A DNA stretch of 64,000 nucleotides from Myxococcales bacterium (lineage in GTDB: Bacteria; Myxococcota_A; Polyangia; Polyangiales; DASUME01), in contig JASGJH010000001.1 of NCBI GenBank assembly GCA_047601445.1, positions 6,144,001 through 6,208,000 on the forward strand, given 5' to 3'. This document shows, in pieces, positions 18,086-28,145 of this stretch (the stretch's first letter is position 1; each line of letters starts with the position of its first letter). Under the pieces are notes generated by a model. The model saw only the letters and a list, made by a program, of their open reading frames with translations. It was not told where the DNA came from and did no database searches. Both the position numbers and the translations under genes were made by a program.

Positions 18086-18272
18086 TGACTTCGCAGGGTA
18101 TCAAAGCGAAAGCGGTGCAGCCCAGCAAAGTGAACGAGCGAAATCCATCCCTTGCGCCTCCTCACCGATCTGTCCTGGAGGAACACGACACGCAATTGGG
18201 CTGAGTATCACAAAAGATTCGTGCGCGGTGCTTCCTTGACTGCCCAGGGTGGGAGCAACACCTTACGCTGCC

Positions 18273-19696
18273 GTGTCGAAGCCCAAAAAGACGATCCACT
18301 TTGTCTCGCTCGGATGTCCCAAGAACCGAGTCGATACCGAGGTCATGCTCGGCGTGGGTGCGGGTGAGGGCTTCAAGAATCGTGGCGGACCCCAGTCAGG
18401 CCGAAGTGATCGTCGTGAACACCTGCGGGTTCATCGGTCCGGCCAAGGAAGAGTCCATCGATACCATCCTGGAGATGGGCTCCTTCAAGGAGAGCGGCAG
18501 CTGCAAGAAGCTGGTGGTCTCGGGCTGCCTCTCGCAGCGCTATCCGGAAGAGCTCGCCAAGGAGATGCCCGAGGTGGACTACTTCTTGGGCTCGAGCGAC
18601 ATGCTCAAACTCGGCGATGTGCTGCGCGCCAACGAGAAGCACCCCCTGGAGCGCGTGCTGGTGGGCAACCCCGCGGATTACACCTTCCGCGCCACGGACC
18701 CGCGCCTGCCCTCCATGGCCACCCACAGCGCTTACGTGAAGATCGCCGAGGGTTGCTCGCGCAAGTGCAGCTTCTGCATCATCCCGAGTATGCGCGGCAC
18801 CCAGCGCTCGCGTCCGGTCGAGGACATCGTGAGCGAAGTGGAGCAGCTCGTCTCGCGCGGGACCCAGGAAATCAACCTGGTTTCCCAGGACACCATCTCC
18901 TACGGGCGCGACCTCAAGCAAGACGGGCGCAACCTGTCGCATCTGGTGCAGGCCCTGGGCGAGGTGAAGGGCCTCAAGTGGCTGCGCCTGTTCTATCTCT
19001 ATCCCGAGCGTCTCACCGAAGAGATCATCGAGCTGTTGGCGCACCACCCGAAGGTCCTGCCCTACGTGGACATGCCGCTGCAGCACGCCAGCGACCGCAT
19101 GCTCAAGCTCATGCGCCGCGGCCACGGGCCCGACCGCCAGCGCAAGCTGGTGGAGCGCATGCGCACCGAGATCCCGAACCTCACCTTCCGCACCGCTTTC
19201 ATCGTCGGCCATCCTGGGGAGACGGATGCGGACTTCGCGGAGCTGTGCGACTTCGTGAAGTGGGCCGAGTTCGACCGCGTGGGCGTGTTCAAGTACTCCC
19301 ACGAGGAAGGCACGCGCTCGGGGACGCTCGACGAGGAAGTCCCGAGCAAGACCATCGCCGCGCGCCATCGCAAGCTCATGCAGATCCAGCGCCCCATCAG
19401 CCGCAAGAAGATGCGCCGCATGGTGGGCAGCCGAGATCGAGGTCCTGGTGGAGGGCGTGAGCGACGAGAGCGAGTTCTTGCTCGAAGGTCGCCACGCGGG
19501 CCAGGCCCCGGACATCGACGGCAAGGTGTACCTCGCCAACGGGGAGGCCAAGCCCGGTGAGATCCGCAAGGCCATGGTGACCGACGCCGCCGACTACGAT
19601 CTCGTGGCGGACCTGCTGCCCCGCGAGGGGGGCGGACTCGACCGACCGCCGGGCGCCAAGCGGGTGCGCCTGCGCACGCTCAACGGGCAGGTCTGA
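18273..19696 (+). CDS. rimO: Ribosomal protein S12 methylthiotransferase, interrupted by two one-base insertions (~18378, ~19431)
   Basis: VSLGCPKNRVD, VNTCGFI, CSRKCSFC radical SAM motif, LFYLYP, TRAM-region QAPDIDGKVY spread over three consecutive ORFs. Confidence 0.9.
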
Positions 19697-19789: not shown

Positions 19790-20095
19790 ATGAATCCAGG
19801 CCAGCTCACGCTAGACAGCCGCATCCGGCCCTCCGACAAGACCTTGTTTCGCAACGTGGAAGGGGAGGCCGTGCTCCTCGGATTGAATGCGGGTTCCTAT
19901 TTCGGGCTCGACCCCGTGGGCACCCGCATGTGGGAGCTGATCGCCGAGCGCGGCCTCTTGCGGGACGTGGTGAGCGGCATCGTGGCCGAGTTCGAGGTCG
20001 ACGCGGCGCGCGTCGAAACCGACCTCCTTAAGCTGGTTTCCGCATTGCTGGAGAAGCAGCTGGTGGAGCTCGCTGGGTCCGGCCCGCATCCCTGA
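19790..20095 (+). CDS. PqqD-family RiPP recognition element (lasso B1/E-like)
   Basis: 101 aa; EGEAVLLGLNAGSYFGLDPVGTRMWELI...VETDLLKLVSALLEKQLV; 9 bp upstream of the cyclase. Confidence 0.9.
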   Translation: MNPGQLTLDSRIRPSDKTLFRNVEGEAVLLGLNAGSYFGLDPVGTRMWELIAERGLLRDVVSGIVAEFEVDAARVETDLLKLVSALLEKQLVELAGSGPHP

Positions 20096-20104
20096 GCTGG
20101 CCCC

Positions 20105-22042
20105 ATGAGCGGCATCGCGGGCATCGTGTGCAGCGGAGCGGACCCTCGACCCGGACAGGGCGCTGCGCTCGAACGAATGCTGAGGGCGCTGGAGGCCAAG
20201 GGCCCGGACGGTGCCTCGCGCTGGCAGGAAGGGCCTGCATCGCTGGGCCTCACCCTGTTTCGCAGTACGCCCGAGCAAGCGCATGAACACGGGCCGACAC
20301 AGGTCGAGCATGTGGTCGTGGTGGCCGACGCTCGGCTCGACGAGCGTACGGAGCTGCTCGATCTGCTCGAGGTGCCTGCCCATGCCCATGACGGCATCCC
20401 GGATAGTGAGCTCATCGCGCGTGCCTATTTGCGCTGGGGCGCCGAAGGCTTCGGCCGCCTGCGAGGAGATTTCGCCCTCGCACTCTGGGATCGACAGCAG
20501 CGGACGCTGTGGTGCGCGCGGGACGTGTTCGCGGTGCGGCCTTTCTACTACGCGGAACTGCCGCAGGGCTTCATGTTCGCCTCGAACTTCGAAGCGTTCC
20601 GCCAAAGCGAGCTGATCGCGGCCGCGGTGGATCCGGTCCGCGTGCACGACGCGCTCACCTGGCGCTGGCTCGAGTTCGGGGAACCGGGACGCACGTACTA
20701 TCGCGACATCATGCGCCTGCCAGCCGGTCATGTGCTGCGCTTCCAGGCTGGGCAGCTGCGCCTGCAGCGCGTGGATCTCTTGCGGCCCACGCGGGATCCG
20801 CTACCGCGGGACTCTCGCGAGCTGCCGCTGCTGTTCCGGCATCACTACAAGCGTGCGGTGGCGCGCCGCCTCAGAGCCGAGCGCCCAGTGGCCTCGATGT
20901 TGAGCGGCGGCCTCGATTCCGGAAGCGTCGTGTGCCTGGCCCGCGAGGTCTTGCGTGAGCGCGGCGGGCCGCAGCTCATCACGTGCTCGGTGTTGGGGGA
21001 TCCACCCCTCGACGGCGAGACCCCCTACGTGCGCGCCGTTCAGGCGAGCGGGGACCTTCGTTGTCACGACCTGACCTTTGCGCGCCTCCCAGAGCTCGGA
21101 CCCGTGATGAGCCGCTACTTCGAGCGCTCGCCCTGTATGCCCGTCGAGTGGGCCTACTGTCAGATGATGCTCGCCTGCTCGGTCAGCGCGCGCGAGGCGG
21201 GCGCCCGCGTCCTGCTGACCGGCGAGACAGGTGACATCGCCCTCGGCGTGGCTTGCAACCCCACACGCCGGGCGCTGCAGGAGGGCAAGGTCGTGGAGGC
21301 CTACGGGCTGCGACTGGAGGAGGCGCGCTTTGTGGGCTGGAGCGGGCGCGAGCTCATGACTTCGTGGCTCGCCGACAGCACCTGGTTCCTCCAGCAGGAC
21401 GTGCTGCAACGGGTGTCTCCTGCGTTCCACTGGGCACGCAGGAAGCGGCGCCATGCGGTCTGGAGGCGCGCGCTGCAGGCCGAGCGGCCAGAGCTCAAGT
21501 CGCTGCCGGAGCCCCTGGCTGCCGAGTTCTTGAGCCGCTTCCACGAGGTGCAGGTGGCCGCCGAGTGGCCCAATCGCGAACGCGAGGATCACTATTTCGC
21601 CAACGGAGTCGATCGCGGCATGGCCGGGGTCGGCGAGGCATACGACCGGGTCTGCAGCGCCCATGGGGTCGAGGCCCGCCACCCGATCTTGGACCGGGAT
21701 CTCGTGGAATTCTGCATGGCAGTGCCCTGGCGCGAGCGCCGGCTGGGAGGAACCAACAAGTCCCTCCTCAGGCGTGCGGAGATCCTGCCCGAGCTGCACG
21801 AGCGTCAGCGGCCCATGCCGAACGTGAACACCGAGGCGCGCCACACCATGTGTGCCCAGGTGGGACCATGGCTTGGGGACCGGCTTGCCAACGTGCAGGC
21901 GGCCTTTCAGTGGGCGACTGAGGACTACGTCAGGCAGCTCGAGCAGAGCTTCCGTGCGAGCCCTGCTCTCGGGGGAAACAGGCTCGACCAAGTGCTTGAG
22001 CTCATTGCGCTTGATGCCTGGGCGGGGCCGCGCGCGAGTTGA
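20105..22042 (+). CDS. Asparagine-synthetase-like lasso cyclase (C protein)
   Basis: N-terminus MSGIAG (Ser replaces the glutaminase Cys), GDFALALWD, ARD..RPFYY, LSGGLDS ATP loop, LTGETGD, RHPILDRDLVEF; flanked by RRE and precursor. Confidence 0.85.
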   Translation: MSGIAGIVCSGADPRPGQGAALERMLRALEAKGPDGASRWQEGPASLGLTLFRSTPEQAHEHGPTQVEHVVVVADARLDERTELLDLLEVPAHAHDGIPDSELIARAYLRWGAEGFGRLRGDFALALWDRQQRTLWCARDVFAVRPFYYAELPQGFMFASNFEAFRQSELIAAAVDPVRVHDALTWRWLEFGEPGRTYYRDIMRLPAGHVLRFQAGQLRLQRVDLLRPTRDPLPRDSRELPLLFRHHYKRAVARRLRAERPVASMLSGGLDSGSVVCLAREVLRERGGPQLITCSVLGDPPLDGETPYVRAVQASGDLRCHDLTFARLPELGPVMSRYFERSPCMPVEWAYCQMMLACSVSAREAGARVLLTGETGDIALGVACNPTRRALQEGKVVEAYGLRLEEARFVGWSGRELMTSWLADSTWFLQQDVLQRVSPAFHWARRKRRHAVWRRALQAERPELKSLPEPLAAEFLSRFHEVQVAAEWPNREREDHYFANGVDRGMAGVGEAYDRVCSAHGVEARHPILDRDLVEFCMAVPWRERRLGGTNKSLLRRAEILPELHERQRPMPNVNTEARHTMCAQVGPWLGDRLANVQAAFQWATEDYVRQLEQSFRASPALGGNRLDQVLELIALDAWAGPRAS

Positions 22043-22137
22043 CCCATTGCCGGGATTCCATCAAGATGTGAACGCCCGACGGGGGTCTGGCAACCAACAT
22101 CACGGGGCTGGAGCTCCCACGAACTTGGGGATGAATC

Positions 22138-22317
22138 GTGTCGAATCCGAACAACACCGTGCGCAAGTCCTACAGCGAGCCTCGTCTGGAAGAGTACGGT
22201 GCCCTGACCGATCTCACCCGCTCGTCGCTCTTGTCGATGAACAACCAAGAGAACCTGAAGACCCCCACCCAGTGTCAGATGCCGAACGGTGACCGGACCG
22301 GTCCCAAGCCCTGCTGA
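22138..22317 (+). CDS. Lasso-type RiPP precursor peptide, 59 aa: MSNPNNTVRKSYSEPRLEEYGALTDLTR-SSLLSMNNQENLKTPTQCQMPNGDRTGPKPC
   Basis: Translated by hand (not in the ORF track); GTG start after GGGGA RBS with an in-frame stop just upstream; exact YxxPxLxxxGxxxxxT leader motif; TGATG overlap with the next gene. Confidence 0.92.
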   Translation: MSNPNNTVRKSYSEPRLEEYGALTDLTRSSLLSMNNQENLKTPTQCQMPNGDRTGPKPC

Positions 22318-23477
22318 TGGGCGCGTACTCGCTCGGCTCCTACGCGAGCATGCTGGCGTGCCGTACCCGCATGCCCGCCTATTTCGAGGCGCTTGAACGC
22401 ACGGTCAAGCCGGGGTCCGTTGTCCTCGACCTCGGGGCCGGATTCGGATACTTCGCGCTGCTGGCCTGTCGCTTGGGCGCGGCCCGTGTGTACGCCATCG
22501 AGCCCGCTGAGTCGATCTCCGTGGCCGCCGAGCTGGCGCGCCTGAACGGCTTTGGCGATCGCATCGTTCCCATCCGTGATAGCTCGCGCAATGTGAAGCT
22601 CCCGGAGCGCGTCGATGTGATCGTCTCGGACATCCGCGGTGCGCTCCCGACCATCGGCGGTTCGCTGCGAACCCTGATCGACGCCCGCGATCGGTTGCTC
22701 GCTCCAGGCGGTACCTTGATTCCCTGGCGTGATCGTCTGTGGGTTGCCCCGATCGACGATCGCCCTCAGTGGCAGCGCTCGGTGCGCCCGTGGGCCGTGG
22801 TAGCCGAGGCGTTCGAGCCGGCTCGTGGGCTCAACCTGACGCCCGTCGAAGAGCGCCTGGTCCACTACACTCGCTCCAGCGAGCTGCTGATCGCGTCGTT
22901 CATGGCCACGCCTCAGATCTGGGCCGAGATCGACTATCACACGAACCAGAACACCGACGTCGAGGGCGCGGTGGAGTTCCAGATTGCGGAGCGCGGCACC
23001 GTCTACACCCTGGGCATCTGGTTCGACGCGGAGCTGATGGAAGGCATCCGCTACGCGTCGGGGCCGGAGCGCGGCACCGTGTATGCGAACATGAGCCTGC
23101 CGTTGAGCCAGCCGCTGAGCGTGCAGCCGGGCGACACACTGAAAGTTCGCCTTCTCTCCAGCGACATCGGTGGGACCTATCACCTGAGCTGGTGGACCTC
23201 CCTGATCCGCGGCGGACAAACGCTGAGCTCGTTTCAGCAGAGCGACTTCTTGTCGGAGCCGCTAGTGCTCGATCGCTTCAAGCAGCGTCTGCCCAACCAC
23301 ATGCCCAAGCTTGAGCGCCGCGCGGAGATCGTGCGGCAGATTCTGGATGGCGCTCACGCAGGGCTCAGCCTCGGGCAGATCGCAGCGAAGTTGATGGAGA
23401 ACTTCCCCGACCGTTTCGAGAGCACGACCGCCGCGCTGGAGCACGCCGCCAACGCTTTCGAGCTGTTCAACGGCTGA
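22317..23477 (+). CDS. Class I SAM methyltransferase with PRMT-like two-domain architecture
   Basis: MLxxxxRxxAY, VLDLGAGFG, VYAIE, LPERVDVIVSD, ARDRLLAPGGTLIP, GIWFD in a beta-barrel-like region. Confidence 0.8.
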   Translation: MGAYSLGSYASMLACRTRMPAYFEALERTVKPGSVVLDLGAGFGYFALLACRLGAARVYAIEPAESISVAAELARLNGFGDRIVPIRDSSRNVKLPERVDVIVSDIRGALPTIGGSLRTLIDARDRLLAPGGTLIPWRDRLWVAPIDDRPQWQRSVRPWAVVAEAFEPARGLNLTPVEERLVHYTRSSELLIASFMATPQIWAEIDYHTNQNTDVEGAVEFQIAERGTVYTLGIWFDAELMEGIRYASGPERGTVYANMSLPLSQPLSVQPGDTLKVRLLSSDIGGTYHLSWWTSLIRGGQTLSSFQQSDFLSEPLVLDRFKQRLPNHMPKLERRAEIVRQILDGAHAGLSLGQIAAKLMENFPDRFESTTAALEHAANAFELFNG

Positions 23478-23483
23478 CCGGTC

Positions 23484-24374
23484 ATGCCGACGTATTCGAT
23501 TCTGGGACTTCGGTTCGAGCTGCCCTGGAGCCTCGATCTGCCGGCAGTAGAGGAGCCGGCGGACTACCAGGTGACATTCGGCCCGGTCGAGGATGTTCCC
23601 GACGATCCTGCGATCGACTCGCCCTTGATGACGCGCAAGGGACGCGCGCTGGAGCTCTCCATGGGCGGCATCTGCCGCATGGTGGTGCCCGGCCAGGGCA
23701 CGCCCGCCCAGGTCGAGTGCTATCCCCACCGCGAGCAAAGCATCGAGGAGGTCAAGCGACAGGTCCTCGAGCACCTCATTCCGCGGCTGCTCTCACGGCA
23801 CTACCAGCTGGTGTTGCACGCGAGCTGTGCCGTGTTCGAGCACAATGCGCTCGGGTTCTTCGCTCGCTCGGGAAGCGGCAAGTCCACCATGGCGCTGGCG
23901 ATGGCGCGTGCGGGCGCCACGATTTTGGGCGACGACAGCCTGGTGCTCGATCGAGGTCCCGATGGCGCCATGGCGCGTGCGCTGTGGTCCACCGTGCGCG
24001 CCTTCAACGACAGCCTGAGCACCACGCTGGAGGTCGAGCGTCCCGACGCCGAGAGCAGCAAGATCGTGCTCACCCACGGTGAGGCGGCACGGCTTACTTT
24101 CGAGCGCGGGGCGCATCCGCTGAAGGCCCTGTATGCGCTCGAAGAGAGCGACGAGATCCGGATTCTGCCCATGAGTCCGCGCGAGGCCATGTTGGCGCTC
24201 CTGCGAGAGGCCTATCACCTCGAGTTCGACGACATGAAGGGCATGGCCGAACTGATGGCGCGAACCGAGCAACTCGGGCTCACGCGGCGCACCTTTCGGC
24301 TCGCCTATCCTCGCGATTTCGCGCGCCTGCCGGAGGTGGTCGCGCGCGTGCGCGCACATGCGGCGAGCTTGTAG
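23484..24374 (+). CDS. HPr-kinase-related P-loop kinase (lasso kinase-like)
   Basis: LHASC, Walker A RSGSGKST, LGDD signature; inside the RiPP operon. Confidence 0.8.
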   Translation: MPTYSILGLRFELPWSLDLPAVEEPADYQVTFGPVEDVPDDPAIDSPLMTRKGRALELSMGGICRMVVPGQGTPAQVECYPHREQSIEEVKRQVLEHLIPRLLSRHYQLVLHASCAVFEHNALGFFARSGSGKSTMALAMARAGATILGDDSLVLDRGPDGAMARALWSTVRAFNDSLSTTLEVERPDAESSKIVLTHGEAARLTFERGAHPLKALYALEESDEIRILPMSPREAMLALLREAYHLEFDDMKGMAELMARTEQLGLTRRTFRLAYPRDFARLPEVVARVRAHAASL

Positions 24375-24376
24375 CG

Positions 24377-26137
24377 ATGTCCCCCCTCTACGCCCGCGCT
24401 AGAGGCCTCCTGCTCCCACGCTGGCGGCTCGTGGTCCTCGCCATCGCTTTTGCCTTTCTGTCGGCCCTCACGGACGCGGGATTCGCGATCACAGCAGGCG
24501 GCGTGGCTGGCTGGCTGTTCGACAAAGCAGGCAGCCAGTCGTCGATTGTGGCGGCCTTCGGTGTCGATCGCGGCTTCGGCCTCGTCATGGGTCTCGGCCT
24601 GATCGCCGGCCTGCGTGCTCTCGGTACGCTCGGCGCGGCCTGGGTAACCGCGCGCCTGGGCTCGGAGATCGCCCACGAGCTACGTACGGAGCTCTACGAG
24701 CGCACGGCGTTGAATGCGCTGCCCCGGGTCCTGGCCCACCACCGCGGCGAAGTCGTCTCGCGGCTCCAGGACGACGTAGAGACCATTCAGGTAACACTCA
24801 CGTACTCCGTCACCGGCATCGCGCACACCGTGCTCTCCACGTTGATGGTGGGCAGTGTGATCTTGTCGATCGATCCCTGGGTCGGTCTCTCGTGTTTCGT
24901 GGGCGCCCCGCTGGCGGCGCTGGTGGTTCGTCTGGCGAACCGCCGCTTCTACGTGCTCTATGAGCAGCTTCGCCAGGACCACGGCATGCTCATGGGACGC
25001 ATCGAAGAGATCGTGGATGCGGGGGATGTGGTGCGCAGTCTGGGCGGCGAGCGCAGGGTCATCGAGCGCTTCACCAAGCTTTCGGAGCGCGTGAAACAGG
25101 CATCGCTAGAGGTTGCGCGCACGTCCGCTTTGACCAAGCCGATACTGTCCCTGGTGGGCGCCCTCGGCCTTGGTGTGCTGTTGGTCTATTGGAACTCGGG
25201 AAATGCGCCGGCTCCTGCCGAGCAAGCCGCGCTGTTGGCCGCTGCGGCCATCTTGATTCGCCCGCTCCATGCGGTGTCGCGCTGGTACGAGGTGGTGGCC
25301 TCGACACGCAGCTCGTTCCTGCGGGTGGACGAGATTCTGCAGACCCCACGAGTGGAGCTCGCTTCGGACGAACCCACGCAGCGACCGGATGCGCAAGCCT
25401 TGCGTGCTCGGGAACTGGCGTTCGCATTCGGGGAGACGTCGGTCTTCACAGGCGTGTCTTTCGAGCTCCGGCGCGGCCAAGTGCTGGCGGTGGTGGGCCC
25501 GAGCGGTAGCGGCAAGACCACCTTGCTCAGGCTCCTCACGGGCTCACTCGAGCCTGCGACGGGTAGCGTAGAGATCGACGGCAAAACTCGGGCGGACATG
25601 GAAATGCGCAGCTACCGCCGGCATTTTGCCTGGGTCCCCCAGGAAGCGCGCTTGTTGTTCGACAGCGTGGCCGAAAACCTGCGACTCGGTCGACCCGGGG
25701 CGAGCGACCTCGAGCTTAGCCAGGCCCTGCAAGCCGCCGACTTCCCGCTTTCGGCTCAGCACTTTCCGCAAGGCCTGGAGACCAAGATCGCCGACGACGG
25801 ATCGCCGTTTTCGGTCGGGCAACGACAGCGCTTGTGCATTGCTCGCGCGCTGCTCACGCAGGCGCCTTTCTTGGTGCTAGACGAGCCCACGGCTGCGCTC
25901 GACGAACGTACAGCCGAGGAACTCCACCGAACCCTGCTCGGGTTGCGCGAACGGTTGGGCGTGTGCCTCGCGACCCATCGCTTGAGCAGCGTAGAGCAGT
26001 GCGATTGGGTGGTCGTGCTCGAGGGAGGGCGGGTGGTCGAAGAAGGGCGCCCCGCAGATCTGCGCCAGCGTGGTGACCGCTTCCGTTCGCTGTTCGCTCA
26101 GGACATCGTGCGCCTGGAGGCGGGCAAGGTCGGCTGA
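24377..26137 (+). CDS. ABC exporter, fused permease and ATPase, no peptidase domain
   Basis: N-terminal TM helices; GPSGSGKT, VPQE, FSVGQRQR, LVLDEPT, THRL. Confidence 0.9.
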   Translation: MSPLYARARGLLLPRWRLVVLAIAFAFLSALTDAGFAITAGGVAGWLFDKAGSQSSIVAAFGVDRGFGLVMGLGLIAGLRALGTLGAAWVTARLGSEIAHELRTELYERTALNALPRVLAHHRGEVVSRLQDDVETIQVTLTYSVTGIAHTVLSTLMVGSVILSIDPWVGLSCFVGAPLAALVVRLANRRFYVLYEQLRQDHGMLMGRIEEIVDAGDVVRSLGGERRVIERFTKLSERVKQASLEVARTSALTKPILSLVGALGLGVLLVYWNSGNAPAPAEQAALLAAAAILIRPLHAVSRWYEVVASTRSSFLRVDEILQTPRVELASDEPTQRPDAQALRARELAFAFGETSVFTGVSFELRRGQVLAVVGPSGSGKTTLLRLLTGSLEPATGSVEIDGKTRADMEMRSYRRHFAWVPQEARLLFDSVAENLRLGRPGASDLELSQALQAADFPLSAQHFPQGLETKIADDGSPFSVGQRQRLCIARALLTQAPFLVLDEPTAALDERTAEELHRTLLGLRERLGVCLATHRLSSVEQCDWVVVLEGGRVVEEGRPADLRQRGDRFRSLFAQDIVRLEAGKVG

Positions 26138-26170: not shown

Positions 26171-27037
26171 TCAGGAGCCGATCAGCTCGAACTCGTTCTC
26201 ATCGTCGTGACTCTCTTGAGCATCGGCGGTGACCTGCGCACGGCGCTCGGCTCGCAGCTTGTTGACGCGGGCCACGTCGACCTTGAGTCGGGGCAATAGG
26301 GTCCGATTCACCAGCTCGAGCTTGGTCACCATGGGGCGCGTAAGTGGACGCTGCTTACGTACCATCTCGTAGAACTCTTCGAACACCGTGGCGATGCTCG
26401 CTTCTACGCTCGCGTTTTGGGCGCGCGCGCGCTGGGTCCGATGCTCCGGCCGCACTGCTTCCAGCGCGGCGCTGAGGTCCCCACCGCCAACGAACGAGAG
26501 CGCCTCACGCACGGTGCGCTCAGGCTCCTCGAGCATCGTGTCGTAGGCCCAGAGGCGGAGCGGGTACTTGCGGCGCAGACCGTCGACCAGCAGGCCGTAG
26601 TTGCAGGTCCACCACTCGAATACCGGGTCGAGTCGGGCCGGCGGCTCGAAGTTGGGGTGCTTCTGACGACGGGAGTCATCCTCCATCTTCCACATGCGTC
26701 GGCGCGACTCCTCGTACTCGCGGAAGTCGCGCATGCTGGCGATCACGCGTCCGAGGTAGCGCGGGTTCGTCCGCACCACGCCTGGCACGAAGATCTTCAC
26801 CACGTGCTTCTCGAACTGCGCGGGATCGAGCGCTCGACCCGTGGTCGGATCGAGCTCGGCCTTACCGTAGACCCCGCGCCGGAGCTTCGACTCGTAGAAC
26901 CCTTCCGGATTCGCCGCGCCGATGCTCTCCTTCCACTGACCAGGAAAGCGCTCGCCGAGATAGGGTAGCCCGGCCGCGATGAGGACTTGCATCCACATCG
27001 ACGTTCCAGAGCGTTTGGTGCCGGTGACCACGATCAC
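26171..27037 (-). CDS. Sulfotransferase-like P-loop protein
   Basis: N-terminal VTGTKRSGTS matches the 5'-PSB loop pattern GxxRSGTS; NPEGFYE; YDTMLEEP. Confidence 0.6.
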   Translation of the reverse strand: MIVVTGTKRSGTSMWMQVLIAAGLPYLGERFPGQWKESIGAANPEGFYESKLRRGVYGKAELDPTTGRALDPAQFEKHVVKIFVPGVVRTNPRYLGRVIASMRDFREYEESRRRMWKMEDDSRRQKHPNFEPPARLDPVFEWWTCNYGLLVDGLRRKYPLRLWAYDTMLEEPERTVREALSFVGGGDLSAALEAVRPEHRTQRARAQNASVEASIATVFEEFYEMVRKQRPLTRPMVTKLELVNRTLLPRLKVDVARVNKLRAERRAQVTADAQESHDDENEFELIGS

Positions 27038-27071: not shown

Positions 27072-28145
27072 TCAAACCTTCTGGTCGGGCTTCGCGGGCG
27101 CGCTCTTGCGCCGACGACGCGTGAGCCACAGCGCGAGGGCCGTGAGGGACAAGGTGCCCAGGCCATTGCCCATGGAGTTGCCGGTGGTGCTGCAGTCGCA
27201 GCCACCGCCGCCAACCTCGCCGCCGTCTTCGCCCGCGTCTTCGCCCGCATCCGCCACGGGTTCGCCGCCATCGGGTGTGCCGCTGTCCACATGATGGCCG
27301 GCGTCCACGCCGCCATCCGTGTGCGTGCCGGCGTCCGCGACGCCGCCGTCCGTGCCGCCGTCGGTTTCGGTTCCGCCATCCGGCGTTCCGGCGTCGGGCA
27401 CAGGCTCGTCCACGCCGTTATCGCCATAGAGCGAAAAACCGAGCGTAACGTTGGGATAGTCCTGGGGCAGCGTGCCGCCGTAGAAGATGTTGCAGTTGCC
27501 GAAGGGCAGGTAGTGAAAGGGCCCGTTGATGCCGTTGCTCGCCGTGATCTCCGTGGTCTTGTAGCCGCAGTTGGTGCGCAGCGCGAGCTGGAGGTCACCA
27601 GGAGCCGTGGAGCGCTTCACCACGTCGACGAAGAACTTGCCACCTGGTGCCGTGTCGACCGTGACCATGAACCAATAGCGTCCTGGTGGGAGGACACAGG
27701 CGGTCGGCAGCTTGTAGCTCAGGTCGTAGGGCGCCGTGATGGTCGGCGTCACCGCGGAGGCGGAGCAGTTGGGGTCGGCGAGCGGCTGGTCCGGCAGGTT
27801 CGACGCGCTGTTGCTCCAGATCTGAAACGTGAGCTTCGGATCGAAGGCCGGCACGCCCTGATACCTGCCCTCGATGAAGACTCGCTCGAGGGACCAGTTC
27901 GCACCCTCTGGCACCAAGAAGTCGTCGGCGACCTCGGTGTCGTAGGTCCAGACCGGGTTGCCGACCCCGTCGTAGGGATCGTCGGTCTCGTCGTAGGTGT
28001 CGTGGAGCTCTGCGAAAGCTCCCGACCCTGCCTGAACAGGGCCTGGATTCGAGTAGAGCACTTCCTCCTTGTGCTGGGCGGAGGCCACGAGCGGGAGGCT
28101 CGCGGTGACAGTGGCAAGAACGGACAACTTTTTGGCAGCAGTCAT
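27072..28145 (-). CDS. Secreted protein with MYXO-CTERM tail
   Basis: Signal peptide; VADDF beta-sandwich-like domain; DAG/DGG linker; GGGGCDC...LTALALWLTRRRRK. Confidence 0.75.
   Translation of the reverse strand: MTAAKKLSVLATVTASLPLVASAQHKEEVLYSNPGPVQAGSGAFAELHDTYDETDDPYDGVGNPVWTYDTEVADDFLVPEGANWSLERVFIEGRYQGVPAFDPKLTFQIWSNSASNLPDQPLADPNCSASAVTPTITAPYDLSYKLPTACVLPPGRYWFMVTVDTAPGGKFFVDVVKRSTAPGDLQLALRTNCGYKTTEITASNGINGPFHYLPFGNCNIFYGGTLPQDYPNVTLGFSLYGDNGVDEPVPDAGTPDGGTETDGGTDGGVADAGTHTDGGVDAGHHVDSGTPDGGEPVADAGEDAGEDGGEVGGGGCDCSTTGNSMGNGLGTLSLTALALWLTRRRRKSAPAKPDQKV

Follow-up and report, generated by a model that had tools for sequence, protein, structure and literature searches.

The window analysed here, 64,000 nucleotides of a Myxococcales genome (contig JASGJH010000001.1, positions 6,144,001 to 6,208,000), contains an operon that reads as a lasso-type pathway for a peptide synthesised on the ribosome and modified after translation (RiPP). 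Its genes encode, in order, a RiPP recognition element (RRE), a cyclase, a precursor, a methyltransferase with the fold of protein arginine methyltransferases (PRMTs), a kinase and an exporter. In our reading of these sequences, a leader peptidase encoded elsewhere would act in trans, and the core peptide would be closed into a Ser1-Glu10 ring and carry a phosphate, a methyl group and a disulfide in its tail; we put the chances of this complete picture at about even. A lasso-type RiPP is also what the original prediction had proposed, and the gene set, the leader and the RRE sustain that part of it, although the operon has no B2 leader peptidase and its cyclase scores below the curated cut-off. 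The same prediction called the combination of genes unfamiliar. Searched by title and start of abstract, the open literature yielded no characterised lasso cluster that includes a PRMT-fold enzyme, but this combination is not uncommon: among 80 metagenomic loci with such a methyltransferase, a lasso gene or precursor is present in 70. Judged by its sequences, the cluster is a divergent member of a widespread lasso family with a kinase and a PRMT-fold methyltransferase.

The proposed pathway would begin with binding of the YxxPxL leader by the RRE, a step established for the family, and with phosphorylation of a serine or threonine of the linear precursor by the HPr-kinase-like enzyme, for which the conserved ring Ser5 and a tail threonine are candidates. 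The PRMT-fold enzyme would methylate the peptide, with arginine not the target. The genome's lone B2 would then cut two residues past Thr(-2), between the residue that follows this threonine and Ser1, and the freed Ser1 would be joined to Glu10, adenylated by the cyclase, in a macrolactam of ten residues. Finally, the ATP-binding cassette (ABC) exporter would secrete the peptide, whose Cys18 and Cys31 may oxidise to a tail-tail disulfide. Since the core contains no aromatic residue, this disulfide loop is the likely stopper that would keep so wide a ring threaded. A more specific version, in which the lactam is closed by a cyclase without its usual lysine, the peptidase is shared among scattered clusters and the kinase and a repurposed PRMT-fold O-methyltransferase together build a methyl-phosphate cap, seems improbable in all its parts at once.

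The precursor appears to be a genuine gene and not a chance reading frame. A leader-plus-acceptor pattern scanned over 171,839 six-frame stretches of the genome matched only twice, here and at a precursor in a second lasso cluster, and an independent homologue (P0248; 60 residues, E 6e-5, 57% identity) exists. The YxxPxL...T leader named in the original prediction is present, with YxxPxL and Thr(-2) in the same register as in the family leaders, and the last 11 leader residues are identical in P0248. The core of P0248 keeps Ser1, Ser5, Glu10, Asn11, an internal cysteine and the terminal Lys-Pro-Cys; Glu10 is its sole acidic residue, and Glu10-Asn11 is conserved while the adjoining residues vary. 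Position 2 is glycine in P0248 and serine in the window core. Both cysteines (Cys18 and Cys31; Cys19 and Cys28 in P0248) lie C-terminal to the predicted ring. As P0248 keeps these residues, it supports the precursor gene, the Glu10 acceptor and the disulfide, which had earlier been called probable. From the sequence we predict a ring of ten residues and a disulfide in the tail, on a linear core with a computed monoisotopic mass of 3388.56 Da. HMMER gave four precursor matches in all, of which P0246 (a repeat protein annotated as apolipoprotein(a)-like) and P0247 (a long low-complexity protein) were dropped as chance repeat matches; a word-based search returned only the window precursor itself.

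The family context comes from 1,070 methyltransferase homologues, retained at E up to 1e-10 among 8,000 candidates scored, and from the best 80 of 252 metagenomic loci, which were annotated with our own profiles and in which many contigs are short. Across the 80 loci we found a kinase in 61, a cyclase in 38, an RRE in 26 and a B2 in 23. When only bounded loci are counted (methyltransferase and cyclase present, with 1.2 kb or more free on either side), 15/15 have the kinase and 7/15 a B2, which suggests that kinase and methyltransferase form a stable unit and that a missing B2 is common. The comparison of cores took in 49 distinct sequences, after exclusion of one false match, the two from the genome studied here (G000) and 10 loci of a Met-ending subgroup. 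Of these cores, 39 end in Lys/Arg-Ser/Thr-x(0-2), against a mean of 3.4 and a maximum of 11 after shuffling. The window operon has the three features of the family subtype, namely a D-x-R-G methyltransferase, an HPr-like kinase and a Cys-less cyclase.

Variants of this arrangement were also seen. The loci L003, L004, L043, L061, L063 and L095-L099 mostly encode a shorter methyltransferase without the C-terminal helical domain, and 8/8 of their distinct cores end in methionine. A third methyltransferase subtype, with D-Q-I-G where seen (L006, L009, L151, L162), goes with precursors that mostly end in Cys-Leu or Cys-Ile. Two family clusters (L013 and L089) carry two tandem precursor genes. Four cassettes of RRE, B2, precursor, kinase and ABC-2 genes, all from genomes of the same genus as the host, contain no cyclase gene (L158, L159, L160 and L161, in G403, G405, G402 and G406, respectively); their cores are conserved and Phe-rich, with one cysteine and a terminal serine, and possibly represent a linear phosphopeptide class.

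The methyltransferase (METHYLTRANSFERASE) has a PRMT fold. Its AlphaFold2 (AF2) model (pLDDT 90.9) has PRMT6 and PRMT2 as top Foldseek matches (E 3e-28), and VIA gave Z 32.4 (root-mean-square deviation 2.8, 311 residues aligned), with Z 32 to PRMT2 against 14.3 for the best non-PRMT match. In sequence, it combines a PrmA-type Rossmann domain with a weak PRMT5_C match, its best match in the PDB is a plant PRMT (E 8e-23), and an additional helical domain, some 70 residues long, follows at its C-terminus. The earlier description as PRMT-like thus holds for the fold; arginine as the target is unlikely, and the active site is rewired. In PRMTs, the double-Glu loop binds the guanidinium group. Aligned to a solved PRMT, the window enzyme has D-x-R-G here, with Asp105 at the first glutamate and Gly114 in the column of the second, and its THW loop reads T-V-Y (x-I/V-Y in the family), so that it belongs with PRMTs by fold but by neither loop. 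Among 119 homologues, Asp105 is found in 118, Arg107 in 111, Gly108 in 119 and Tyr256 in 116, while just 13 have a glutamate in the second-Glu column. Distant myxococcotal homologues, most of them with no lasso gene in the 1.5-kb flanks, keep the glutamate and mostly a T/S-H-W loop, which argues that the active-site change is specific to the lasso-linked branch. PRMT-like proteins of this kind occur in many Myxococcota (L100-L122), mostly without nearby lasso genes, and are candidates for true bacterial arginine methyltransferases; PRMT-like profile matches at E up to 1e-40 were found in 69 of the 401 genomes searched.

What the enzyme methylates can be narrowed from its active site and from the peptides it accompanies. 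Arg107 stands where PRMTs have a pocket-lining methionine, and would therefore suit an anionic substrate. The D-x-R-G site also accompanies Met-ending cores without any lysine or arginine (L096, L099), which, together with the invariable presence of the kinase in bounded loci, favours an anionic methyl target. We accordingly lean towards an anionic oxygen, with a confidence a little short of even; taken singly, the kinase-made phosphate is a tentative candidate and the C-terminal carboxylate a slightly more doubtful one. In the other direction, 45 of 49 family cores have a lysine or arginine in the last five residues and Lys29 is kept in the Lys-Pro-Cys end, which favours a lysine and makes the near-terminal Lys29 the main, if less likely, rival acceptor. 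Another target, such as a Cys sulfur, is improbable, and arginine very improbable. At Asp15 and His116 the window enzyme is unlike the rest of the family, which leaves room for a target of its own. WbdD, a kinase-methyltransferase, offers a precedent. Among lasso peptides, a nucleotidyltransferase caps the phosphate of pseudomycoidin and StspM esterifies a C-terminus, as described in PMC8498205. A predicted complex of the methyltransferase with S-adenosylhomocysteine and the precursor scored 0.02 and was counted neither way. Comparison of the C-terminal domain with the RRE gave an hhalign probability of 13% (E 0.002, 25 columns; controls 0.2%), and VIA barely covered that part; that it is a degenerate RRE is a weak lead.

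The kinase, already named as such in the original prediction, is HPr-kinase-like by profile (HprK, E 1e-9) and by fold, its AF2 model (pLDDT 90.5) matching HprK/PEPCK folds at E 2e-6; against the domain libraries, its HprK-related matches were weak. All 44 aligned family members match TIGR04352, the window kinase at E 1e-5 and below the cut-off. It keeps His112, Lys133-Ser134 and Asp151, and the first Walker-A glycine is Ala127. The lasso kinases known so far modify the precursor while it is linear, either on a C-terminal serine or, in the case of BsfK, on ring Ser3 (PMC10368454). Of the two features of paeninodin-type systems, the window has the HPr-kinase homologue and lacks the C-terminal Ser phospho-acceptor, as its core ends in cysteine.

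Several observations weigh against the pathway proposed here. Structurally characterised lasso rings have 7, 8 or 9 residues, according to PMC13352647. The window core, with 31 residues and a Lys-Pro-Cys end, differs from the short family cores of 14-23 residues with their Lys/Arg-Ser/Thr-x(0-2) ends. Cyclase, kinase and methyltransferase all differ from the family consensus in a number of places, and all sit on long branches. The cyclase lacks the C-terminal lysine that 97/116 homologues have, scores 300 bits where the NF033535 cut-off is 525, and falls outside the main Asp9/Asp10 cyclase clade in the best trees, with neither alternative rejected by approximately unbiased (AU) tests. Its closest homologue (P0126, 52% identity), the close methyltransferase homologue P0002 (75% identity over the N-terminal half) and P0248 are single proteins without genomic context. 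The cyclase/P0126 and methyltransferase/P0002 pairs each sit on a long branch, and these three proteins and the window genes look like a small, fast-evolving sub-lineage. Lastly, the proposal that B and C proteins have to form a complex (PMC13352647) lowers the confidence in a shared B2 encoded far away.

As first described, the cyclase is an asparagine synthetase homologue without the catalytic cysteine (Ser2 occupies the position of the N-terminal Cys of AsnB), with PF00733 and GATase domains. Its PP-loop is conserved, S267, G268, G269 and D271 being found in 118/118 homologues and S272 in 116. The C-terminal lysine, catalytic in AsnB and beta-lactam synthetase, is found in 23/25 family cyclases and in the genome's true AsnB, and is replaced in the window cyclase. 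The R-x(1,2)-K motif that holds it is likewise missing in P0126, on which ground we rejected a sequencing error. Because this lysine is absent and the position in the tree unsettled, lactam formation is not assured. The enzyme may instead form no macrolactam, or join the adenylated carboxylate to Lys29 or a cysteine. The product would then be either a peptide freed of its leader, closed by its disulfide and carrying phosphate and methyl groups, or a branched ring that is not threaded. The lack of an acid at positions 7-9 and of an aromatic plug would fit such a product, the cassettes L158-L161 make cyclase-free kinase pathways plausible in this lineage, and AS-like enzymes perform other C-terminal RiPP chemistry, as reported in PMC13060819. 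Against this, the ATP-loop, Glu305, Asp377, Lys552 and Arg556 are retained, with 52% identity to P0126, the lysine motif is missing from 17 other homologues of the 116, Glu10-Asn11 is conserved amid varying neighbours, and there is no glutaminase Cys to supply ammonia. We consider an outcome without the lactam possible but unlikely.

A cyclase phylogeny had been suggested as a check, and gave a divided answer. In both best trees, which took in no characterised cyclase, the window enzyme lies among Cys-less proteins, near cyclases of the same genus whose precursors have Glu8 or Asp8 acceptors; yet in the AU tests a grouping with Cys-type AsnB (p 0.337) and a place in the main Asp9/Asp10 clade (p 0.286) both remained statistically acceptable. 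The assignment as a lasso cyclase follows from genomic context, the missing cysteine and the profile scores, not from phylogeny. All eight family cyclases tested also fall under the NF033535 cut-off (317-415 bits). A mosaic cluster with a cyclase from another clade was considered and discarded: the 98% support in the approximate likelihood-ratio test (SH-aLRT) of a first tree fell to 85 in a later one, and the AU tests were non-significant.

Ring size depends on where the leader is cut. On the Thr(-2) register, Glu10 is the first acidic residue of the core and the only ring acceptor, and the predicted ring would exceed by one residue the largest in a lasso peptide of known structure; for fusilassin/fuscanodin, a ring of ten residues obtained by engineering is mentioned (PMC8498205). 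An acceptor at positions 7-9 is obtained only with a cut one residue later. In that case (Thr at -3), or if Ser1 is trimmed, Ser2 (Gly2 in P0248) would join the same glutamate, now Glu9, in an ordinary nine-residue ring. This would restore a canonical ring size with serine or glycine, both usual first residues, at the start of both cores, and as the operon lacks a B2 of its own, the place of the cut would depend on an outside protease. However, it would put an arginine at -2, where nearly all lasso precursors have threonine and the reported exception is isoleucine (PMC10368454). The family cores also fit the Thr(-2) register. In 22 of the 49, position 10 is the sole acid within positions 7-11, and the first residue is small or polar in 21 of these 22, as it is in 25 of the 27 cores whose acceptor stands at 8 or 9; the second residue is so in only 9/22. 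This like composition of first residues favours a common cut site and hence a ten-residue ring; we consider the nine-residue alternative rather improbable. Since the best trees place the window cyclase outside the Asp9/Asp10 clade, the Asp10 statistics of the family are only indirect support.

A lasso cluster requires a precursor, a peptidase and a cyclase (PMC13352647). The operon encodes no B2 leader peptidase, and the only Pfam domains of the ABC exporter are PF00664 and PF00005, with no peptidase domain detected. The genome (9.5 Mb in a single contig, 98.7% complete) has one B2, at G000:C1:6394196, about 225 kb downstream of the operon. This protein scores 93.8 bits against NF033537 (cut-off 33), keeps the catalytic Cys and His and, in a short pairwise comparison with the B2 of one relative (65 codons), has nonsynonymous and synonymous divergences (dN and dS) of 0.23 and 0.80. 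In full, the genome encodes one B2, three RREs, two each of Cys-less cyclases, precursors and lasso-type kinases, and a single methyltransferase of this type. A second lasso cluster without B2 (RRE, cyclase, precursor and kinase) lies about 100 kb upstream (G000:C1:6063978-6067495). One intact but distant B2 and this second B2-less cluster argue for cleavage in trans, and the simplest reading is that one peptidase probably serves several clusters. The orthologue of the second cluster has a B2 in G404 (L157) and none in G407 (L155) or G000. B2 was found in 9/9 genomes of the genus, and all four genomes with B2-less clusters carry B2 elsewhere, although the relatives' assemblies are fragmented and some loci end near the cluster.

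The missing B2, the many consensus departures in cyclase, kinase and methyltransferase, and the long branches could also mark a decaying, drifting cluster that has lost its peptidase. We think this very unlikely, as the six reading frames are intact and tightly spaced, independent homologues share the departures at 52% (cyclase), 75% (N-terminal half of the methyltransferase) and 57% (precursor) identity, and 8/15 bounded family loci lack B2 as well. Least credible of all is an ordinary AsnB or polysaccharide amidotransferase lying beside RiPP genes by chance: the AU test leaves a Cys-type AsnB grouping standing and database homologues are named asparagine synthase, but the catalytic Cys is replaced by Ser, the lasso cyclase model scores best (300 vs 181 bits), Cys-less proteins surround the enzyme in both best trees, the genome has a separate Cys-type AsnB, and the gene is placed between RRE and precursor.

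Two observations concern the other lasso loci of this genome. The lone B2 sits behind an ABC-2 ATPase, a permease and an RRE (L002:7867-10526, equal to G000:C1 about 6391866-6394525), and no cyclase or precursor was seen beside that locus. The second cluster encodes a 34-residue core with Trp1 and Glu8, and adjoins dTDP-rhamnose-type genes.

The proposed pathway resembles several known systems, each in part. Paeninodin/pseudomycoidin-type clusters (with the kinases PadeK, ThcoK and SyanK), as described in PMC8498205, share with the window a split RRE, a Cys-less full-length AsnB-like cyclase, an HPr-kinase homologue, an ABC exporter and a YxxPxL leader. They differ in encoding B2, in phosphorylating a C-terminal Ser where the window core ends in Cys and has its acceptor at 10, and in having a nucleotidyltransferase in place of the PRMT-fold methyltransferase. 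The bsf cluster of Bradymonas sediminis FA350 (BsfA/B1/B2/C/D/K/N) is likewise a deltaproteobacterial lasso cluster with an HPr-like kinase, RRE-assisted in bsf; the His, Walker-A Lys-Ser and Asp-Asp residues required in BsfK have counterparts in the window kinase, and bsf provides a precedent for phosphorylation of a ring Ser (PMC10368454). In contrast to the window, bsf has a B2, Ile(-2) and a nucleotidyltransferase, and the account in that source gives no methyltransferase among its 7 ORFs. The class IV lasso peptides pandonodin, LP2006 and felipeptins have one tail-tail disulfide, as predicted for the window core, and pandonodin has a similarly long core (33 residues), but no kinase or methyltransferase is described for their clusters in the text available from PMC13352647 and PMC9266682.

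As for the methyltransferase, other lasso clusters also encode enzymes dependent on S-adenosylmethionine (SAM): LasF and StspM form a C-terminal methyl ester, and PIMT-like enzymes act in cellulonodin-2 and lihuanodin, where they lead to an aspartimide. Unlike these O-methyltransferase and PIMT folds, the window enzyme has a two-domain PRMT fold. With eukaryotic PRMT1/2/3/6 and CARM1 it shares the Rossmann and beta-barrel domains and the SAM-binding glycine motif; it differs in D-x-R-G without the second Glu, in x-I/V-Y for THW, in its C-terminal helical domain and in the position of its gene next to a peptide precursor.

A natural ten-residue lasso, if true, would shift the accepted 7-9 limit and put to the test how a wide ring stays threaded, a question to which this sub-lineage offers the terminal disulfide loop as a specific answer; the conserved Glu10 and disulfide tail make it a good test case within a common family. 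The methyltransferase represents over 1,000 proteins in databases that have the PRMT fold but another active site; once its reaction is defined, a new modification of peptides would be known, and a bacterial off-shoot of the PRMT fold. If one peptidase does serve several clusters in trans, this would explain why roughly half of the bounded clusters in the sample appear incomplete to genome-mining tools.

The features of the operon are listed in Table 1. As originally described, its six open reading frames (ORFs) are co-oriented, with intergenic gaps of 9, 95, -1, 6 and 2 bp that the ORF coordinates reproduce exactly, and begin with a PqqD-type RRE, which scores above its Pfam cut-off and also matches NF033536 at 53.5 bits, under the cut-off of 80. 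The exporter is equally as described, and is of the MsbA type. GC content overall and at third codon positions (GC3) is like that of the neighbouring genes. No sigma-70 promoter was found at the operon, and terminator-like sites were no more frequent than chance.

Table 1. Features of the lasso-type operon, in window coordinates.
Feature	Size or residues	Position	Strand	Basis or remarks
Stand-alone RRE (lasso B1 / PqqD-type leader-binding protein)	101 aa	19790..20095	+	PF05402 51.2 bits (cut-off 23.4)
Cys-less AsnB-like lasso-type cyclase	645 aa	20105..22042	+	NF033535 300 bits (cut-off 525) vs TIGR01536 181 bits
Cyclase PP-loop SGGLDS (ATP binding)	residues 267-272	20903..20920	+	homologue alignment
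Cyclase Met571, at or adjoining the usual C-terminal Lys position of AsnB-fold enzymes	residue 571	21815..21817	+	homologue alignment
Precursor ORF	59 aa	22138..22317	+	GTG start
Leader peptide	28 aa	22138..22221	+	YxxPxL 22171-22188, Thr(-2) 22216-22218
Predicted core	31 aa + stop	22222..22317	+	Ser1, Glu10 (22249-22251), Cys18 (22273-22275), Lys29, Cys31 (22312-22314)
PRMT-fold SAM-dependent methyltransferase	386 aa	22317..23477	+	sequence and AF2 fold matches
Methyltransferase rewired active-site motif	D105-x-R107-G108	22629..22640	+	replaces PRMT E-W-M-G start of double-Glu loop
HPr-kinase-like peptide kinase	296 aa	23484..24374	+	profile and fold matches
MsbA-type fused ABC exporter	586 aa	24377..26137	+	PF00664 and PF00005; best NCBIfam TIGR02203, below cut-off

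Just upstream of the operon lies a gene that we take to be rimO-like, of the radical-SAM type (window 18249-19696, +). It is split over three frames, probably by assembly indels, and cautions on the single-base accuracy of the genome. Downstream, a convergent ORF (26171-27037, -) has no credible Pfam or NCBIfam match and is presumably, from its motif, a P-loop, sulfotransferase-like protein; we excluded it from the cluster, as the genome holds two paralogues of it in other places and none of the loci compared contains a match. Another gene nearby (27072-28145, -) encodes a secreted-type protein with a MYXO-CTERM sorting domain, which, with the Polyangiaceae-type loci of relatives of the same order, agrees with the myxobacterial host proposed at the outset.

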